A stretch of 64,000 nt of DNA from Chloroflexota bacterium (GTDB lineage Bacteria; Chloroflexota; Limnocylindria; Limnocylindrales; CSP1-4), in the NCBI GenBank assembly GCA_021785175.1, contig JAJYGH010000077.1, forward strand, positions 11,709 to 75,708, read 5' to 3'. Of the stretch, positions 37,214 through 48,780 are shown in pieces. The position numbers were made by a program, and so were the translations under genes. Numbering within the stretch: the first letter of the stretch is position 1; every line of letters starts with the position of its first letter. Under the pieces are notes generated by a model that had not been told where the DNA came from, did no database searches, and saw nothing but the letters and a program-made list of their open reading frames with translations.

Positions 37214-39235
37214 CTACACGAGCTCCGGCCGGACCCACTCCTTGCCGAGCACGTGGTGATCGAGGAACGCCAGGACGGTCGCGTACCAGAGCCGCGAGTT
37301 CTGCGGCTTCAGCACCCAGTGGTTCTCATCGGGGAAGTACAGGAACTTCGACTCGACGCCGTGCCGCTGGAGGTCGGTCCACAGCTGGAGCGCCTCGCTG
37401 ATCGGCACCCGGGCGTCGAGCTCGCCGTGGATGACGAGCATCGGCGTGCGGAACGACCCGATCGCACGCGACGGGCTCTGCTCGACGTACCGGTGCGCGT
37501 CCTCGTACGGATTCCCGAACTCGAACTCCCACCAGTTGCCGTCGTCCGTCGTGCCGTGAAACCCGCGCAGCTCGTAGAGGCTCGCGTGGGTGATGATGCA
37601 GCGGAAGCGATCCGTGTGGCCGGCAACCCAGTTCGCCATGTAGCCGCCGAACGACCCGCCCATGAGCGCCTGCCGGCTCTCGTCGATGTCGGGGCGCGCG
37701 ACCGCGGCGTCCACCGTCGCGATCATGTCCGTGAACGGCGCCTCGTTCCAGCGTCCCCACCCGCGCTGCACGAACGCCTGCCCGTACCCGAGCGAGAACG
37801 CCGGGTCGGGGAGGAGGACGGCGTACCCGCGCGAGGCGAGGATCTGGGAGTTCCACCGCCAGTGCCACCCGTCCGTCCACGACCCGAGCGGGCCGCCATG
37901 GACGAACACGACGAGCGGCGCGGGATCGTCGGCCGAGGCCTCGGGCGGGAGCACGAGCCAGGCGCCGATCCGGGCGCCGTCCGCTGCCGTCGTCTCGATC
38001 AGCTCGACCCGGCCGGGCGTGCCGACGGCCGTGGCGTCGAGTGCGGACGATGGCAGGACGCGCGGGGACTGCTCGGACGCGTCGGCGTCGAGCCTCACGA
38101 CCTGGTTCGGCACGCGCAGCGTCGAGCGCAGCGCGTACACGGCCGACCCGTCCGCAGATGGAGCGATGTTCGCGAACGTGCCGTCCGCCGAGAGGCACGA
38201 CACCGTCCCCGTCGCGAGATCGGCGCGGAACACGCCCTCGCTGCCCCGCCGGGCGGCGAGGAAGAAGACGGCCGACCCGTCGGGGGCCCAGGTCGGGGAG
38301 TCGGGCCACAGGTCGGCGGTGGGGGCGAGGTCGCGACCCAGCCCGGACTCGAGCTCCACCAGCCAGAGCCGGCCCTCCTCGGCTGTTTCGGGGTCGCCGA
38401 GTGACGTGCGGACGCAGGCGACCGACCGCCCGTCGGGCGAGACCGCGGGCTGGTCGTAGGAGGCATCGCCGCCGGTGAGCGTTCGCGTTCGGCCGGTCTC
38501 GACGTCGATCGCGACAAGGTTCACGACCGGGCGGCGGATGTCGTCCGACAGCATCGAGGCGACGACCGTGCGGCCGTCGGGCGAGACGTCGAAGCCGCGC
38601 TCCTCGAGCGCGGCCCCCGCGTCGGGCGTCAGGTCGCGGACGTCGGCCGCGGGCTCGGTGCCCTCTGGGATGCGGGCCGACAGGAGGTGTCGCTCGCGCG
38701 GTCCGACGTAGTGGTCCCAGTGCCGGATCGGGTACGACTCGAACAGCAGGGCCGAGACCCCGGCGTCCTTGCGCGCCTTCGCGCGCGCCGCGTCCGCGTC
38801 CAGCGTGCCCGCGTCGCGGTGCATCCTGCCCGCCATCACCACCGTCCGGGCCGAGCGCGCCGCGCGGATGTCCTCGATCCCGCCCTCCGGCGCCAGGAGC
38901 TGACGTGCCTCGCCCCCGTCGGCAGGGAGCAGCCAGAGCGCCTGCGTCTCCCGCTTCGCATCGTCGGTCGCGTCGGGGTCGGGCCGGGCGGAGGCGAACA
39001 GGAGCGATCCGTCGGGGAGGAAGGCCGGGCTGCCCTCGCCGGACGCCGACCGCGTAAGGCGCCGCGGCTCGCGCCGTCCGTCGGGATCGACCTCCCACAG
39101 GCTGTTGACGAGCTTCTTGCCGTCGGGCGCCGGCACGCCCACCGTGACCACGAGGCGCGACCCGACGGGCGAGCAACGAAGGTCGGACAGGCGGGGCAGC
39201 GTGACGAACCGGTCGAAGTCGAACGTCTCACTCAT
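37214..39235 (-). CDS. S9 family serine peptidase (prolyl oligopeptidase/acylaminoacyl-peptidase-like) with N-terminal beta-propeller
   Basis: ATG 39235 MSETFDFDRF...; propeller WD/TolB-like repeats (DGS..FL, SPDG), C-terminal alpha/beta-hydrolase with GGSFGGYM nucleophile elbow and VIHGELDARVP; lies in the lower third of a spurious 1744-aa ORF. Confidence 0.85.
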   Translation of the reverse strand: MSETFDFDRFVTLPRLSDLRCSPVGSRLVVTVGVPAPDGKKLVNSLWEVDPDGRREPRRLTRSASGEGSPAFLPDGSLLFASARPDPDATDDAKRETQALWLLPADGGEARQLLAPEGGIEDIRAARSARTVVMAGRMHRDAGTLDADAARAKARKDAGVSALLFESYPIRHWDHYVGPRERHLLSARIPEGTEPAADVRDLTPDAGAALEERGFDVSPDGRTVVASMLSDDIRRPVVNLVAIDVETGRTRTLTGGDASYDQPAVSPDGRSVACVRTSLGDPETAEEGRLWLVELESGLGRDLAPTADLWPDSPTWAPDGSAVFFLAARRGSEGVFRADLATGTVSCLSADGTFANIAPSADGSAVYALRSTLRVPNQVVRLDADASEQSPRVLPSSALDATAVGTPGRVELIETTAADGARIGAWLVLPPEASADDPAPLVVFVHGGPLGSWTDGWHWRWNSQILASRGYAVLLPDPAFSLGYGQAFVQRGWGRWNEAPFTDMIATVDAAVARPDIDESRQALMGGSFGGYMANWVAGHTDRFRCIITHASLYELRGFHGTTDDGNWWEFEFGNPYEDAHRYVEQSPSRAIGSFRTPMLVIHGELDARVPISEALQLWTDLQRHGVESKFLYFPDENHWVLKPQNSRLWYATVLAFLDHHVLGKEWVRPELV

Positions 39236-39324
39236 GCGCGCATCATCGCATCGCGCGGACGGGTCGACGCGGCCGGCAGGCATGTGGGGCGGCGAGGGCG
39301 CGGAACGGCCGGTCGGCACGCATC

Positions 39325-39353
39325 GACGCTGCCGATGGCCCATCGGCAGCGTC
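39325..39353. promoter_or_regulatory. 29-bp perfect palindrome GACGCTGCCGATGG-C-CCATCGGCAGCGTC in divergent peptidase/ppdK intergenic region
   Basis: Read directly; 14-bp perfect arms, sits ~130 nt upstream of ppdK ATG and ~90 nt upstream of peptidase ATG. Confidence 0.4.
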
Positions 39354-39484
39354 CGGCAGGGCGGCGGTACAATCCCGGCGGTGCTGCGTCCCGTTCTTCC
39401 GCGCGCCCGGAGCCGCGTTTCGACGTCCCCAACGCAGCCGATGCTCCCGACCGCGAACCGTCCTGCACAAGGAGCCAGCGACTG

Positions 39485-42268
<2,784 letters not shown>

Positions 42269-42314
42269 CGGGTCGCCCTGGCCGGCGCGGTCGGCGCGTG
42301 CCGGCGTCAGCCTC

Positions 42315-42590
42315 ATGATGACGCTCGAGACGGCGATGCTCGGCCGCGAGCCGTTCACGGCGACGATCTCGCACCTCGTGGACAACGTCATCCTCCTGCG
42401 ACACACGCTCGAGACGGGCCGGATGGCGCGCGCGATCGCCGTCCTCAAGGCACGCTCGAGCCGTCATGAACAGGTGCTTCGCTCGCTGCGGATCGACGAG
42501 CACGGGGTCGAGATCGGCTCAGCCGACGATGCCGACTGGGCCGCTCCCGATGCACTGGAGGCCATCGCCGAGGCTCGCGGCCAGCGGTGA
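42315..42590 (+). pseudogene. Orphan C-terminal fragment of a KaiC/RecA-superfamily ATPase (last ~90 aa only)
   Basis: ATISHLVDNVILLRHTLETGRMARAIAVLKARSSRHEQVLRSLRIDEHGVEIG aligns with the KaiC CII C-terminal segment (TI-DTIILLQYVEI-GEM-RAI-V-KMRGS-HDK-IREF-I---G--I); no upstream ATPase domain present (ppdK ends 47 nt upstream). Confidence 0.6.
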
Positions 42591-43570
42591 GCGATCCGTT
42601 CCGCGAGGGCGGCCGGTCTGGACGCGACCGACGGGACCCGCGGACCGCGGAGCGTGTGGGGATCGGGGCGTCCGCGACCGGCGCCGTCCTGTTCGGCAGC
42701 TCGTATGTCGCCACCGCGTTCGTCCTGCGCTCGTTCCCGCCGCTCGGTGCTGCCGCGTGGCGGGGGCTGCTTGCCACGCTCGCACTGGGGATCGTGCTGG
42801 GGGCCGGCGGCCTCGGGCCACGTCCATCGCGTCCCACCGGGCCGCAGCTCGCTCGGCTGATCGTGCTCGCGCTCACCGGAGGGCTGGTCTTCATCGTGTT
42901 GATGAACACCGCGGTGCAGGACGCGGGCCCGACCATCACGTCGTTCGTGGCCGGGCTCTACGCCGTCCTCGCCGCGGTCCTCGCGCCGGTCGTGCTGCGC
43001 GAGGGGCTCAGCCGCGCGGCCGTGATCGGGTTCGTGCTGGCGCTCGTCGGGACGCTCCTGCTGGCCGAGCTCCACGCCACGTCGTCCACGCTCACGGGGG
43101 TGCTCGTGGGGCTCGGGGCCGCGGTCTCGTACGCCCTGTTCCTCGTGCTCTCGCGCCGCTGGTCCGTGCCGTGGCGGCTGTCCGGACCGGTCGTGACGTT
43201 CGGGACCGTCGTCGCGACGGGTGTCCCGCTCGCGGCCTGGCTCCTCGCGACCGACCCGGCCGCGCTCCTGCCCGCCCATCCGCGGACCGACGCGCTGCTC
43301 GCGCTGGGCTGGCTCGCGATCTTTCCCGGGGTCGTGGCCGTCACCCTGATCGTCATCGGGGTCCAGCGGCTCGACGCGCGCCGCTCGTCCGCGTTCCTGC
43401 TGCTGAACCCGGTCGCGGCCGCGCTGCTCTCATGGCTGCTCCTCGGGGAAGGCCTGAGCCCGAGCCAGTTCGTGGGCGCGGCCCTCGTGCTCGCCGGGAT
43501 CGCGTCGGCGTCCGGCGCGGTGTCGTGGGCGGCGTCGTCGGTGCGCGACTGGCGCGGCGCCGCGACCTGA
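42587..43570 (+). CDS. EamA/DMT-family transporter
   Basis: Ten predicted TM helices in two EamA-like halves; GTG overlaps fragment stop. Confidence 0.7.
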   Translation: MSDPFREGGRSGRDRRDPRTAERVGIGASATGAVLFGSSYVATAFVLRSFPPLGAAAWRGLLATLALGIVLGAGGLGPRPSRPTGPQLARLIVLALTGGLVFIVLMNTAVQDAGPTITSFVAGLYAVLAAVLAPVVLREGLSRAAVIGFVLALVGTLLLAELHATSSTLTGVLVGLGAAVSYALFLVLSRRWSVPWRLSGPVVTFGTVVATGVPLAAWLLATDPAALLPAHPRTDALLALGWLAIFPGVVAVTLIVIGVQRLDARRSSAFLLLNPVAAALLSWLLLGEGLSPSQFVGAALVLAGIASASGAVSWAASSVRDWRGAAT

Positions 43571-43698
43571 CGACCGGGGGACAGGCGCGCGTCAGTCGCG
43601 ACGGCCGCCCGTCCCGATGCCCGTTGCTGCCGCGTCCAGCGACGTTCCCCTTGCCGGCTTCGCGGCGTCCGGCGACGGTCCCGCCGGCCTCTCCGGGC

Positions 43699-44946
43699 CT
43701 ACGCCGGTCCGGATCGAGCGATCGGTCCGGGCCCGGGGGTCGTCCGCGCGCCGGACCAGCGGACGATGCGGTCGGCCGACGTGGCCTGGACGAGCAGCGT
43801 GAAGAGGACGATCCCGAACGTGATCCCCTGGAGCTCGGCCCGGTCGGGGAAGTCGGCCGGCAGCGCGAGCGCCAACGCGACGGCGACGGCTCCGCGGAGG
43901 CCCGCCCAGAACATCACGTGCAGCCAGGCGAGCGGCAGGCGTTCGCGGCCGGTCAGCCGCTCGGCCAGGGCAGACGCGCCGCCGAGCATGAGGTACACGA
44001 CGCCGGCTCGCGCAACGAGGATCGCGACGACGCCCCACGCGATCGGCACGAGCGCGTCGGCAATCCGCGAGACCGGGATCGCGAGCCCGATGAGCAGGAA
44101 CACGAGCGCGGTCAGCAGGAACGCGAGGAACTCCCAGACGACGTCGATGGCCTCCTGCACCCGCTGGCTGAGCCCGACCCGGCGTCCGTAGGAGCCGAGC
44201 ACGACGCCTGCCGCGACCGTCGCGATGATCCCCGACAGCCCGACCCGATCCGCGACGAGGTACGTGCCGTACGCGGCAACGAGCGTCAACGTCAGCTCGA
44301 CGAGGTGATCCTCGATGAGCGCCGCGATCCGGGAGATGACGAAGCCGGAGGCGATCCCGACAGCGACGCTGCCGAGCGTCACCGCGACGAACCGGAGGCC
44401 GGCGTCGCCGAGGCCGACGTGGCCCGTGGTCGCGGCGATCGCGATGGTGAACGCGACAATGCCCGTCCCGTCGTTCAGCAGGCTCTCGCCCTCGACGACG
44501 GTGGCGAGCCGGACCGGTGCACGGAGCCGCCGGATGCTCGCGGTCACCGACGCCGGGTCCGTGGCCGAGACCATGGCGCCGAGCACGAATCCCGACGAGA
44601 GCGACAGGCCGGTCGCGAGGTGCAGCACGACGGCCACGAACGCGGCGACCACGAGGACGCCCGGGACGGCAAGCAGCAGGACCCCGGCCAGGGCGTCCAC
44701 GAGGTCCTCCTGGTCGAGCGAGTACGCAGCCTCGAACACCAGGCCCGGCAGGAGCACGAGCAGCACGAGCTGGGGGCTGACCTGGAGGTGCAGTGGCGGC
44801 GAGACCGCGGAGATCGCAAGCCCCATGAGCACGAGGGCGACCGCGTACGGCAGCCCGACGCGCCTCGTGACGAGCGCGACGAACGCGAGGACGACGAGCA
44901 GGGCGACGAACGCTTCGACGACCTGGACGATCGGCGTGTCGTTCAT
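43699..44946 (-). CDS. Na+/H+ (cation/proton) antiporter, CPA1/NhaP-like
   Basis: Polytopic membrane protein with TDPASV and LLNDGTGIV motifs characteristic of Na_H_Exchanger family. Confidence 0.8.
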   Translation of the reverse strand: MNDTPIVQVVEAFVALLVVLAFVALVTRRVGLPYAVALVLMGLAISAVSPPLHLQVSPQLVLLVLLPGLVFEAAYSLDQEDLVDALAGVLLLAVPGVLVVAAFVAVVLHLATGLSLSSGFVLGAMVSATDPASVTASIRRLRAPVRLATVVEGESLLNDGTGIVAFTIAIAATTGHVGLGDAGLRFVAVTLGSVAVGIASGFVISRIAALIEDHLVELTLTLVAAYGTYLVADRVGLSGIIATVAAGVVLGSYGRRVGLSQRVQEAIDVVWEFLAFLLTALVFLLIGLAIPVSRIADALVPIAWGVVAILVARAGVVYLMLGGASALAERLTGRERLPLAWLHVMFWAGLRGAVAVALALALPADFPDRAELQGITFGIVLFTLLVQATSADRIVRWSGARTTPGPGPIARSGPA

Positions 44947-45302
44947 GCGGGCATGCTAGGCGAGCGGTCGGGCAGCCGCCCGGCGCTCGAGCCGCCAGGC
45001 GAGCCCGCTCGCACGCCGGTGACGGGCGGCCGTCATGCGTGGCGCGTGGAACGGACGCTGACGCGGCGATCAGCGCGCGCCGTTAACGCTCGCCCGGCCT
45101 GCCTCGATCCCACGCCGCAGGCGTCGTGGACCCTGCGTGGGCGGCGGCGCGAAACGCCGGCCCGTCCGCCTGCGGATGCGTGTCCTTCCGCGCCGCCCCG
45201 GCCCGCATGCCGGCGCGCAGCAGCTCGATCTGCCTGCCGGCAGTGCCCCGCGTGACCCCTGCGACGGCCCGCCACCCTCGCCTGGCGGCCGGGCCGGTGC
45301 CG

Positions 45303-45641
45303 TCAGTCGCCGCCCGTGTCGGTGGGCCCCGTCGGCATGTCGGCTGGGCCCAGGTCCCCCGGTTCCGCGCTTCCGAACGCGGTCGAGCTGCCCGTCCCGG
45401 AGCGGGCCCCGAAGGCGCCCGGCGCTCCCTCGCCCGCGCCGCTGCCGCCGAACGCGCCGCTCGCCATGGAGTTGCCGGTCGCGCGGGCGTTCCCGCCTGC
45501 GGCGTGCTCGTCCCAGTGGCCCTCGTGCCCTGCGTGCATGTGTCCGTCGTGGACGTAGTCGGTGTGATCGTCGTGGCCGATGGCCTGGTGCCCGCATCCC
45601 GGGCCGTGCTGGTGCTGATGGTTCGGGTGCTCCTGGTGCAT
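45303..45641 (-). CDS. Small histidine-rich / Gly-Ala-Ser-rich hydrophilic protein (putative metal-binding)
   Basis: ATG 45641 preceded by GGAGG (5 nt spacing); 17 His in first 50 aa (MHQEHPNHQHQHGPGCGHQAIGHDDHTDYVHDGHMHAGHEGHWDEH) then GSGAGEGAPGAFGARSGTGSS tail; high GC3. Confidence 0.6.
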   Translation of the reverse strand: MHQEHPNHQHQHGPGCGHQAIGHDDHTDYVHDGHMHAGHEGHWDEHAAGGNARATGNSMASGAFGGSGAGEGAPGAFGARSGTGSSTAFGSAEPGDLGPADMPTGPTDTGGD

Positions 45642-45695
45642 GTCGCCTCCGTGATGTTCGTGAGGCCGCGTCCCCCGCGGCCGTGGGCAAGCGCC

Positions 45696-45968
45696 TCAGG
45701 CCCCGGCCTTGCCGGGCCTCGCGCCCTGCGACGGGGTGCGCCGGTGGCCGGTGTCGACCCACGGCTCGAGCCCGCTCGTGTCCTGGTGCGTCGGCGTGTG
45801 CCCGGGGTGGTGGCCCCGGACGTCCTTCGCGCGGTCCTGCGATCCGCCCTGCCGGGGCTGCCAGCCCTCGTCCTTGCGTTCGCCCTGGTCCTGCCGGCTG
45901 TCGCCGGCACCGCTCTGCCCGTAGCGCCCGCCGCCTTCGTTCGGGCGGTCGTGCTTCTGACCACTCAT
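45696..45968 (-). CDS. Small highly hydrophilic Gly/Gln/Arg/Asp-rich protein (general-stress/KGG-like disordered protein)
   Basis: ATG 45968 preceded by GGAGG (5 nt); MSGQKHDRPNEGGGRYGQSGAGDSRQDQGERKDEGWQPRQGGSQD...; no TM, no Cys; upstream part of track ORF 45696..46127 treated as non-coding. Confidence 0.55.
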   Translation of the reverse strand: MSGQKHDRPNEGGGRYGQSGAGDSRQDQGERKDEGWQPRQGGSQDRAKDVRGHHPGHTPTHQDTSGLEPWVDTGHRRTPSQGARPGKAGA

Positions 45969-46026
45969 GCTGCCTCCGTCGCCGCGCGCCGAGCCCGCGC
46001 AGATGCCGTCGATCGGTTGCCTGCAG

Positions 46027-46058
46027 CGTGACTCGCGCGTTCTTGCGCGCGAGTCACG
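46027..46058. promoter_or_regulatory. 32-bp perfect palindrome CGTGACTCGCGCG-TTCTTG-CGCGCGAGTCACG (candidate operator) in divergent promoter region
   Basis: 13-bp perfect arms read directly; 59-90 nt upstream of small-protein ATG (minus) and ~80-110 nt upstream of saccharopine dehydrogenase ATG (plus). Confidence 0.45.
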
Positions 46059-46134
46059 GCGGCCGCGACAGCCTTGCAGCGGCAGTCGACCGTGCGCGCC
46101 GGACGCCGGCGCCGCGTATCCATACACTCACGGC

Positions 46135-48005: not shown

Positions 48006-48192
48006 GCCTCGCCCCCGCGCGCCGATCGCGTGACACGCGTGTTCGACCGCCGATGCTCGCGGCCGGGGTCGGTCTGGCGTAGCCGGCGGGGCGGGCGGCC
48101 TGCTCCGGCCCTCTTGCCCGTCCTGGCCCGACCGATGGCACTGTCGCAGGCCGGTGGCGCGGGCCGAGACTCGTTCGCCGGAGGTGCGTCGC

Positions 48193-48780
48193 ATGTCTTT
48201 GACGGCGAAGGTCGCGTCCCCGCTGGCGCTGGTCTCCCTCGAGGAGTGCCTGGAGGGAAGGCGGTCGCGTCGCGACTTCTGCCGCGAACCGCTGGACGAG
48301 GACGTTCTGTACTGGTTGTGCTGGGCGGGCCAGGGGATCACGGACCGCGAGGGCCTCCGCACCGCGCCGTCGGCTGGCGGCATCCATCCGCTCGAGCTGT
48401 ACGTCGTCGCGCCATCGTCGGTGTTCCACTACGACACCCGCGGCGACCGGCTCGAGGTGGTCATGCGCGGCGACCGGCGCCCGGCACTGTGCACCGCGGC
48501 GTTCTCGCAGGACATCGTCGGGCTCTCGGCCGCGACGATCGTCATCGCGGCGGTCGAGGGCCGGATGGACCCGCGGTACGGGGCACGGGCGCGACGATAC
48601 GAGCTGATCGAGGCGGGGCACGTGGCGCAGAACATGCTCCTCGCCGCGACGGCGCTCGGCCTCTGTGCGGCCCCCGTCGGGGCGCTCGACGACGTGGCGG
48701 TGCGTGACGTCCTCGAACTGCCAGAGGCATACCTGCCGCTGTACCTCGTCGCCGCCGGTCGCTCGACGCCGTCGCGCTGA
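48193..48780 (+). CDS. Nitroreductase-family / SagB-type dehydrogenase domain protein
   Basis: RRSRRDF, TAPSAGGIHPLELYVV, EAGHVAQNMLLAATALGLCAAPVGA motifs of FMN nitroreductase superfamily (SagB/ThcOx branch); ATG 48193 with GGAGG 10 nt upstream. Confidence 0.7.
   Translation: MSLTAKVASPLALVSLEECLEGRRSRRDFCREPLDEDVLYWLCWAGQGITDREGLRTAPSAGGIHPLELYVVAPSSVFHYDTRGDRLEVVMRGDRRPALCTAAFSQDIVGLSAATIVIAAVEGRMDPRYGARARRYELIEAGHVAQNMLLAATALGLCAAPVGALDDVAVRDVLELPEAYLPLYLVAAGRSTPSR

Follow-up and report, generated by a model that had tools for sequence, protein, structure and literature searches.

KaiC homologues have previously been noted in Chloroflexi (PMC5520375), and networks of KaiC-like proteins, histidine kinases and response regulators have been described in Pseudomonas (bioRxiv 10.1101/2022.01.26.477890). 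The two-domain KaiC-like ATPases of non-cyanobacterial bacteria consist of two tandem domains (CI and CII, about 460-520 aa) and are often annotated as 'circadian clock protein KaiC' or 'RAD55 family ATPase'. The single-domain KaiC-like proteins (archaeal ArlH/FlaH, thermo_KaiC, KaiC_arch) are complete RecA-like domains of about 230 aa with a P-loop. Here, we consider a 91-aa ORF located between ppdK and eamA in a 64-kb stretch of DNA from a Chloroflexota metagenome-assembled genome (the window, i.e., the whole stretch that was analysed). The ORF is very probably the 3' end of a two-domain KaiC-like ATPase gene, i.e., a 5'-truncated remnant left by a deletion of about 5 kb.

With regard to the two-domain ATPases, the remnant corresponds to their C-terminal 98 residues (69-71% identity), is followed by the same downstream eamA and keeps the segment aligned with the CII phosphosite and the arginine-finger region, but it lacks about 79% of the protein including the first domain, the P-loops, Walker B and the catalytic residues. 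With the single-domain proteins it shares a length shorter than KaiC and a match to PF06745, whereas it covers only about one third of a domain and has no nucleotide-binding site; matches to the C-terminal ends of TIGR03881, TIGR03877 and TIGR03880 are weak (E 0.005-0.06) and far below the cut-offs. The remnant also resembles bacterial pseudogene fragments: only part of the gene is left, while a relative has the intact orthologue at the syntenic site; start, promoter and catalytic motifs are lost, the dN/dS is raised, and the piece is read as an ORF by virtue of an internal Met. Compared to such fragments, its preservation is unusually good, with an open frame and conserved residues, indicating a recent event, and its 3' end probably still serves the translation start of eamA. 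We are dealing with an ordinary gene remnant and no new kind of protein.

The coordinates of all features are listed in Table 1. A first-pass annotation had labelled the ORF as a C-terminal fragment of KaiC/RadA-like ATPases. Both the ORF and its resemblance to the KaiC C-terminus are confirmed, i.e., the 91 aa match PF06745 (KaiC) significantly (E=2.8e-8, 33.9 bits compared to a gathering score of 26.6 bits), and the label can be narrowed to KaiC-like, dropping the RadA part. The match is restricted to profile positions 160-228 of 231 and does not amount to a complete RecA-like domain. In the same way, the NCBIfam KaiC models are matched only at their C-terminal positions 410-473 of 515, and a phmmer comparison with the KaiC chains of the PDB (E=7e-12) places ORF residues 5-69 on KaiC 412-476, which is the C-terminal end of the CII domain. 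Relatives of the ORF have 450-510 aa with two matched stretches, so that a product of 91 aa falls short of two tandem domains. The scores for the circadian KaiC equivalogs are accordingly low (NF006799 and TIGR02655; 38.8 bits for a cut-off of 408 and 29.7 bits for a cut-off of 546). As had been noted before, there is no ATPase core: neither a Walker A P-loop (GxxxxGK[T/S]) nor the Walker B/catalytic acidic residues are found in the 91-residue ORF or in the extended 100-residue frame. The codon-position GC content of the remnant (0.72/0.48/0.86) follows a coding-like pattern, with a third-position value (GC3) slightly lower than the 0.93-0.96 of its neighbours.

The flanking genes, ppdK and an EamA transporter gene, are as first described, and so is the overlap of the TGA stop of the ORF with the GTG start of eamA (as GTGA). 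The ORF begins 46 nt 3' of the ppdK stop. A small correction concerns the KaiC frame, which opens nine codons upstream of the called ATG.

Table 1. Features of the ppdK-eamA locus and corresponding positions in related loci.
Feature	Position in window	Strand	Position elsewhere	Description
ppdK	39485-42268	+	L101 1755-4538	pyruvate, phosphate dikinase, 927 aa; Pfam PPDK_N, PEP-utilizers, PEP-utilizers_C
ppdK stop	42266-42268	+		TAA
Presumed deletion scar	42269-42287	+	L101 4538-9538	19 nt in place of about 5.0 kb; blastn breakpoints, junction alignment
Full kaiC-like remnant (very probable)	42288-42590	+	residues 374-471 of the 471-aa orthologue	100 in-frame codons and stop
91-aa ORF	42315-42590	+		ATG start, ORF finder; sequence MMTLETAMLGREPFTATISHLVDNVILLRHTLETGRMARAIAVLKARSSRHEQVL...; GenBank MDA8203070.1, annotated as 'hypothetical protein', Chloroflexota MAG
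GAGG motif	42570-42573	+		13 nt 5' of the eamA GTG, within the kaiC 3' end
eamA	42587-43570	+		DMT-family transporter, 327 aa; PF00892, E=7e-33
Intact KaiC-like module			L093 2882-5713; L101 7005-9836	divergent PAS_4, MerR-HTH/receiver fusion, two-domain KaiC-like ATPase, without KaiB
Variable interval	42269-46122		L101 4538-14191; L012 3106-3316; L095 3031-3307; L096 5599-6000	between ppdK and saccharopine dehydrogenase gene
Site of missing exchanger gene	44966-45302		L101 12229-13626	370-aa Na+/Ca2+ exchanger (PF01699) in the relative
Histidine-rich ORF	45303-45641	-		112 aa; MHQEHPNHQHQHGPGCGHQAIGHDDHTDYVHDGHMHAGHEGHWDEH...
Longer segment	45652-46098		about 198 nt in L101	447 nt
Gly/Arg-rich ORF	45696-45968	-		90 aa
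Segment differing in length	48031-48101		L101 16138-16345	
Nitroreductase 3' of TK	48193-48780		L101 16259-17026	195 aa (255 aa in L101)
KaiC-like gene end in another contig			L011 572-1039	last ~135 residues' worth of the gene, 1.1-kb metagenome contig

For the comparison with relatives, neighbouring genes served as anchors, and it was the EamA orthologues that led to the loci L093 and L094, whose EamA is the closest orthologue (85% identical). The closest other species is represented by L093, L094, L101, L102 and L103 from independent ENA, Logan and NCBI assemblies, where L101 is NCBI GCA_027344525.1. In this relative, five genes are found between ppdK and eamA, i.e., a nitroreductase, a Pyr_redox_2 oxidoreductase, a PAS_4 protein, a MerR+receiver regulator and a kaiC-like gene. 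The latter (protein P0273, L093/L101) is intact, encodes 471 aa with two PF06745 domains, covers profile positions 2-229 and stops in L093 2 nt before the orthologous eamA GTG. It lies directly 5' of eamA in all five loci. Of these, L103 reaches only from the PAS gene over the MerR/receiver and kaiC-like genes into the next gene, which has no Pfam record and is truncated by the contig end. In L093 (which starts with the last 414 bp of ppdK), L101 and L102, ppdK is found 5 kb further upstream in the same orientation; the outer genes lie beyond the short loci L094 and L103. From ppdK through GluTR, the gene order in L101 and L102 equals that of the window: ppdK, the five genes, eamA, Na+/H+ antiporter, Na+/Ca2+ exchanger, a small His-rich ORF, saccharopine dehydrogenase, TK, nitroreductase, MFS, MerR and GluTR, with the five genes and the exchanger present in the relative; L101 also includes part of the S9 peptidase gene. 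Since it is the same in five independent assemblies, the L093/L101 arrangement is unlikely to be a product of chimeric assembly.

Both Walker A motifs of the parent protein (GLPGTGKT at about 30-37, GPSGSGKT at about 265-272) as well as both Walker B regions are located upstream of the breakpoint at residue 374. With 222 bits, the parent stays below the cut-off of 408 of the NCBIfam circadian KaiC equivalog, and no KaiB or KaiA family is found among the called genes next to it in L093 and L101. The parent gene is KaiC-like and no clock KaiC. It is paired with a receiver-domain regulator, similar to the networks of KaiC-like proteins, histidine kinases and response regulators in Pseudomonas. 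The MerR-HTH/receiver gene and the kaiC-like gene overlap by 4 nt, and for the KaiC-like signalling cassette we observe hundreds of homologues at 54-61% identity, several of them in Actinomycetota MAGs.

The breakpoints are located by blastn, which aligns window positions 37709-42267 with L101 1-4537 and 42287-44965 with L101 9539-12228. That is, the breakpoints are at 42267/42287 in the window compared to 414/5416 in L093 and 4537/9539 in L101, and the window has 19 nt where the relative has 5.0 kb including codons 1-373 of the kaiC-like gene. Beyond the junction, the ORF aligns with KaiC residues 383-469 of L093 (60/87 identical, E=2e-37), and a tblastn comparison extends the homology to residues 374-469 at window positions 42288-42575 (70.8% identity, E=1.5e-28), such that the KaiC frame opens at about 42288 (residue 374). 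In the junction alignment, RSARAGVSL-MMTLE of the window is paired with QRSARAGVNL-LMTLE. The ATG at 42315 is aligned with Leu383 (CTG in L093) and the ATG at 42318 with the internal Met384 of the parent. What the remnant retains of the protein is the C-terminal tail and, before it, about 79 residues from the end of the second (CII-like) domain; the remnant's frame is two codons longer than that of the L093 kaiC and so overlaps the eamA start. The eamA of the window is the orthologue of the gene directly 3' of the intact kaiC in the relatives, with 84-85% aa identity to L093 EamA and a conserved N-terminus. Within the 64-kb window, neither another KaiC-like sequence nor a relocated copy of the deleted genes was found.

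An origin as remnant of a deleted kaiC-like gene, marking a past rearrangement, had already been put forward in the first-pass annotation; the intact 471-aa gene at the syntenic site supports it, and a full kaiC between ppdK and eamA is present in L093, L101 and L102. In an ancestor of this Chloroflexota (Limnocylindrales-like) species, the order would have been ppdK, nitroreductase, Pyr_redox_2 oxidoreductase, PAS protein, MerR/receiver regulator, kaiC-like gene and eamA, as it still is in the closest known relative. A deletion of about 5.0 kb, or several with equal net effect, would then have removed everything from just past the ppdK stop to about codon 373 of kaiC, leaving the last 98 kaiC codons still adjoining eamA. 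Since full-length members of a large family cannot descend from a truncated gene, the state of the window is the derived one. The call of a 91-aa 'protein' results from two in-frame ATGs, of which one is the internal Met and the other is a Leu codon in the relative. With four fifths of the protein gone, including the Walker B motifs and both of the P-loops, no ATPase action is possible, and the remnant is most probably without function as a protein, i.e., we infer that it is untranslated or non-functional.

The ppdK gene itself is intact, with a nucleotide identity to L101 of 91-99% over the whole gene. We considered a recombination tract ending at the junction, given that the identity is 96% in the last 414 bp of ppdK and 81% beyond. 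As ppdK shows 91-99% throughout and the gene upstream 85-90% (L101), the conservation is gene-specific and the tract was rejected. The dS of ppdK is 0.16 over its last 137 codons compared to 0.40-0.59 for the neighbours, its high identity ends at the gene borders, and its GC3 is 0.96. These values fit a highly expressed gene under strong codon-level constraint and not a tract of recombination.

To what extent the remnant is constrained was assessed by comparison with L093. Its dS of 0.59 is similar to that of eamA (0.58), while its dN/dS of 0.39 exceeds the values of eamA (0.17), the antiporter (0.11), saccharopine dehydrogenase (0.11), TK (0.08) and ppdK (0.04). At 74.7%, its nucleotide identity is lower than that of any other coding segment between and including the S9 peptidase and MFS genes. 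All 100 remnant codons are open, but under simulated neutral drift a frame of this kind survives with P 0.68-0.96 for t up to 0.1, so that the open frame is weak evidence of constraint. A relative-rate test against 60 KaiC-like proteins as outgroups, which share 54-61% identity with the parent, yields six window-derived and six L093-derived amino acid changes; restricted to positions with at least 50% consensus, the counts are five and four. Among 28 positions with a conservation of at least 80% across the outgroups, two carry conservative changes specific to the window (A->S, I->V) and one a change specific to L093. In the neutral simulation, at most two such changes are observed with P=0.41 at 0.05, P=0.05 at 0.1 and P=0.002 at 0.15 substitutions per site. 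That is, either neutral drift has lasted for less than about 0.1 substitutions per site, which is about a third of the remnant's branch, or some constraint persists.

Conserved residues are thus lost no faster than in the intact orthologue, from which we conclude that the deletion is probably fairly recent. The sampled strains differ by about 0.5% and have the deletion in common. For a long-dead pseudogene, the preservation of the remnant is too good; a recent deletion and continued purifying selection would explain this equally well. If selection is at work, the truncated tail would still be translated and kept either as a leader ORF of eamA or as a free C-terminal peptide docking to a hexamer of full-length KaiC-like protein encoded elsewhere, and the locus would represent an early stage of gene-remnant co-option. 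We consider this unlikely. The lack of a Shine-Dalgarno motif, the lack of a short orthologue elsewhere and the origin of the strands from an incomplete fold favour a recent remnant over constraint. The retained strands belong to the central sheet of a RecA-like domain whose rest is lost, and are unlikely to fold alone.

The first of these two roles concerns the downstream gene. In both the window and L093, the eamA GTG, the EamA N-terminus and the GAGG 13 nt upstream are conserved (context 'ccatcgccgaggc...' in both), and the GAGG is probably the ribosome-binding site of eamA. Between ppdK and eamA, neither a sigma-70-like promoter nor an intrinsic terminator was found; eamA is therefore probably read through from ppdK. 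No Rfam family matches the region even at an E-value limit of 1, and shuffled sequence folds as well as the 76-nt junction. As the deletion took away the MerR/receiver-kaiC context 5' of eamA, the gene would have lost its upstream operon context and would now depend on read-through from ppdK, using the ribosome-binding site within the 3' end of the remnant. The last remnant codons may be preserved for carrying the eamA initiation region, which is the most plausible residual role, acting in cis and without protein function.

A stronger version holds that, after the loss of the operon's own promoter and upstream genes by deletion, the remnant is kept in cis as a translated leader of eamA, where ribosomes end at the TGA and re-initiate at the overlapping GTG, such that selection acts on the open frame as well as on the last codons with the eamA ribosome-binding site. 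The GTGA stop/start overlap of the window is in accordance with this, as is the L093 kaiC stop only 2 nt before the GTG, by which close coupling would be the ancestral state; further points are the GAGG conserved in both genomes, the lack of a terminator-like site between ppdK and eamA and a frame open across 100 codons. On the other hand, ribosome loading is doubtful for a remnant that has no Shine-Dalgarno motif of its own and starts 46 nt past the ppdK stop, the survival of the frame under drift alone is expected as given above, and the eamA genes of L096/L097 and L092 are located behind a spacer without any homologue of the ORF. We regard such a leader as quite improbable.

A retained mini-protein had been the second option of the first-pass annotation. 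In this case, the 91-aa product would mimic part of a KaiC-like subunit (C-terminal strands, arginine-finger region and tail), and its target for binding or poisoning would be a full-length KaiC-like hexamer from another site of the genome. Family residues are kept in the segments SHL-DN-ILLR and VLKAR-S-H, which are aligned with the S431 region and K457/R459 of KaiC, the amino acid change is no greater than in the intact orthologue, and the GC content by codon position is still coding-like. Nevertheless, we judge a genuine mini-protein to be very unlikely, as the dN/dS is 2-10x that of the neighbours, strands from the central sheet of a RecA-like fold are unlikely to fold alone, the 64-kb window encodes no full-length KaiC, and both the start context and the database searches speak against it.

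With regard to the start context, no Shine-Dalgarno-like motif precedes either ATG (42315, 42318), whereas GGAGG-type motifs precede ppdK, TK, the nitroreductase and nearby small ORFs. A word-indexed search across 5.8 billion proteins found nothing outside the 99%-identity cluster to which the ORF belongs. An exhaustive phmmer search of 1.84 billion representatives gave 298 hits. In most of them, the match is to the C-terminus of a KaiC-like protein of full length (two domains, 450-510 aa); besides the ORF itself, none of the hits is more than 47% identical over a long alignment. In both searches, the ORF forms one species-level cluster without short orthologues in other species. Several short hits start with a Met in the register of the ORF (MTMEAPELLG, MAMEVPELLG, MMTQETAEFYG), and we therefore considered a family of KaiC C-terminal mini-proteins of about 90-100 aa. 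This was rejected since the short hits are contig-edge truncations or miscalled starts: P0012, P0105 and P0100 are located 15-133 nt from the ends of contigs of 0.5-1.1 kb, and for P0071 the KaiC homology continues upstream of the called start. The shared register follows from gene callers using the conserved internal Met when the 5' part of a gene is missing. The contig L011 has the end of a KaiC-like gene (see Table 1) directly beside a STAS-domain gene in divergent orientation, which may be a further case of KaiC truncation, in an unrelated organism.

Finally, an assembly or binning artefact, i.e., a chimeric contig joining ppdK to the middle of kaiC, is conceivable for a metagenome-assembled genome but extremely unlikely here, since the ORF is present in ten contigs from different ENA, NCBI and Logan samples and the junction is repeated across independent assemblies, with zero base differences over the 47 nt between ppdK and the ATG in the nine (ENA, NCBI) that are comparable over the full span, the tenth contig (Logan) being too short for junction comparison.

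Given a recent remnant as the preferred reading, the significance is mainly for annotation, and nothing here is surprising to a specialist. MDA8203070.1 should carry a flag as kaiC-like pseudogene fragment, and short 'KaiC' database entries starting at the conserved internal Met are mostly truncated genes and do not form a family. The locus records the recent loss, within a lineage, of a KaiC-like/MerR-receiver/PAS signalling module along with two redox enzymes, and the deletion placed the EamA transporter directly behind the highly conserved ppdK.

Beyond this deletion, the interval between ppdK and saccharopine dehydrogenase is a hot spot of gene-content change, with five configurations among close relatives. 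L101/L093 have the full five-gene module and the Na+/Ca2+ exchanger; the window has the remnant, eamA, the antiporter and two small ORFs; in L096/L097 and L092, ppdK is followed by a spacer of about 400 bp, eamA and the antiporter; L095 has an oxidoreductase and then directly eamA; and in L012 only about 210 bp separate ppdK from the saccharopine dehydrogenase gene. Using ppdK as anchor in GTDB genomes, L012 (ppdK 88% identical) is the only one that keeps the downstream gene order, but the whole block is missing there, so that the anchor does not serve for reading the direction of change. As window positions 42271-46122 have no counterpart in L012, the KaiC piece is located at the left edge of a variable block. 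A foreign origin of this 3.85-kb block was rejected, since its composition is like that of the flanks and L092 and L096 share the order ppdK-eamA-antiporter. Either the five-gene module dates back to the ancestor of the whole clade, or it is a gain in the ancestor shared by the window species and L093/L101.

No KaiC trace was found in the ppdK-eamA spacers of L092 and L096/L097. We also looked for an older decayed copy of the remnant in the spacers of L092, L096, L095 and L012, which gave only noise. The L012 spacer shows a 26-aa hit with 12 identities (mostly R/A/S) and 44% nucleotide identity that does not extend and is equalled by about 0.75% of random offsets; it was treated as chance.

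Further differences are observed downstream of eamA. A second lineage-specific loss concerns the Na+/Ca2+ exchanger, which in L093/L101 is located between the Na+/H+ antiporter and the small His-rich ORF and of which tblastn finds no trace in the window. The histidine-rich ORF itself is 63% identical in L093/L101, adjoins cation antiporter genes and has neither an NCBIfam match nor a Pfam family in the precomputed contig annotations; it may encode a small metal-binding protein. The longer segment that follows holds the Gly/Arg-rich ORF, which is called in all strains without family match and may not be a real gene. The nitroreductase 3' of TK is shorter than its L101 counterpart, and this length gap corresponds to an N-terminal extension or another start call, next to the segment of unequal length given in Table 1.
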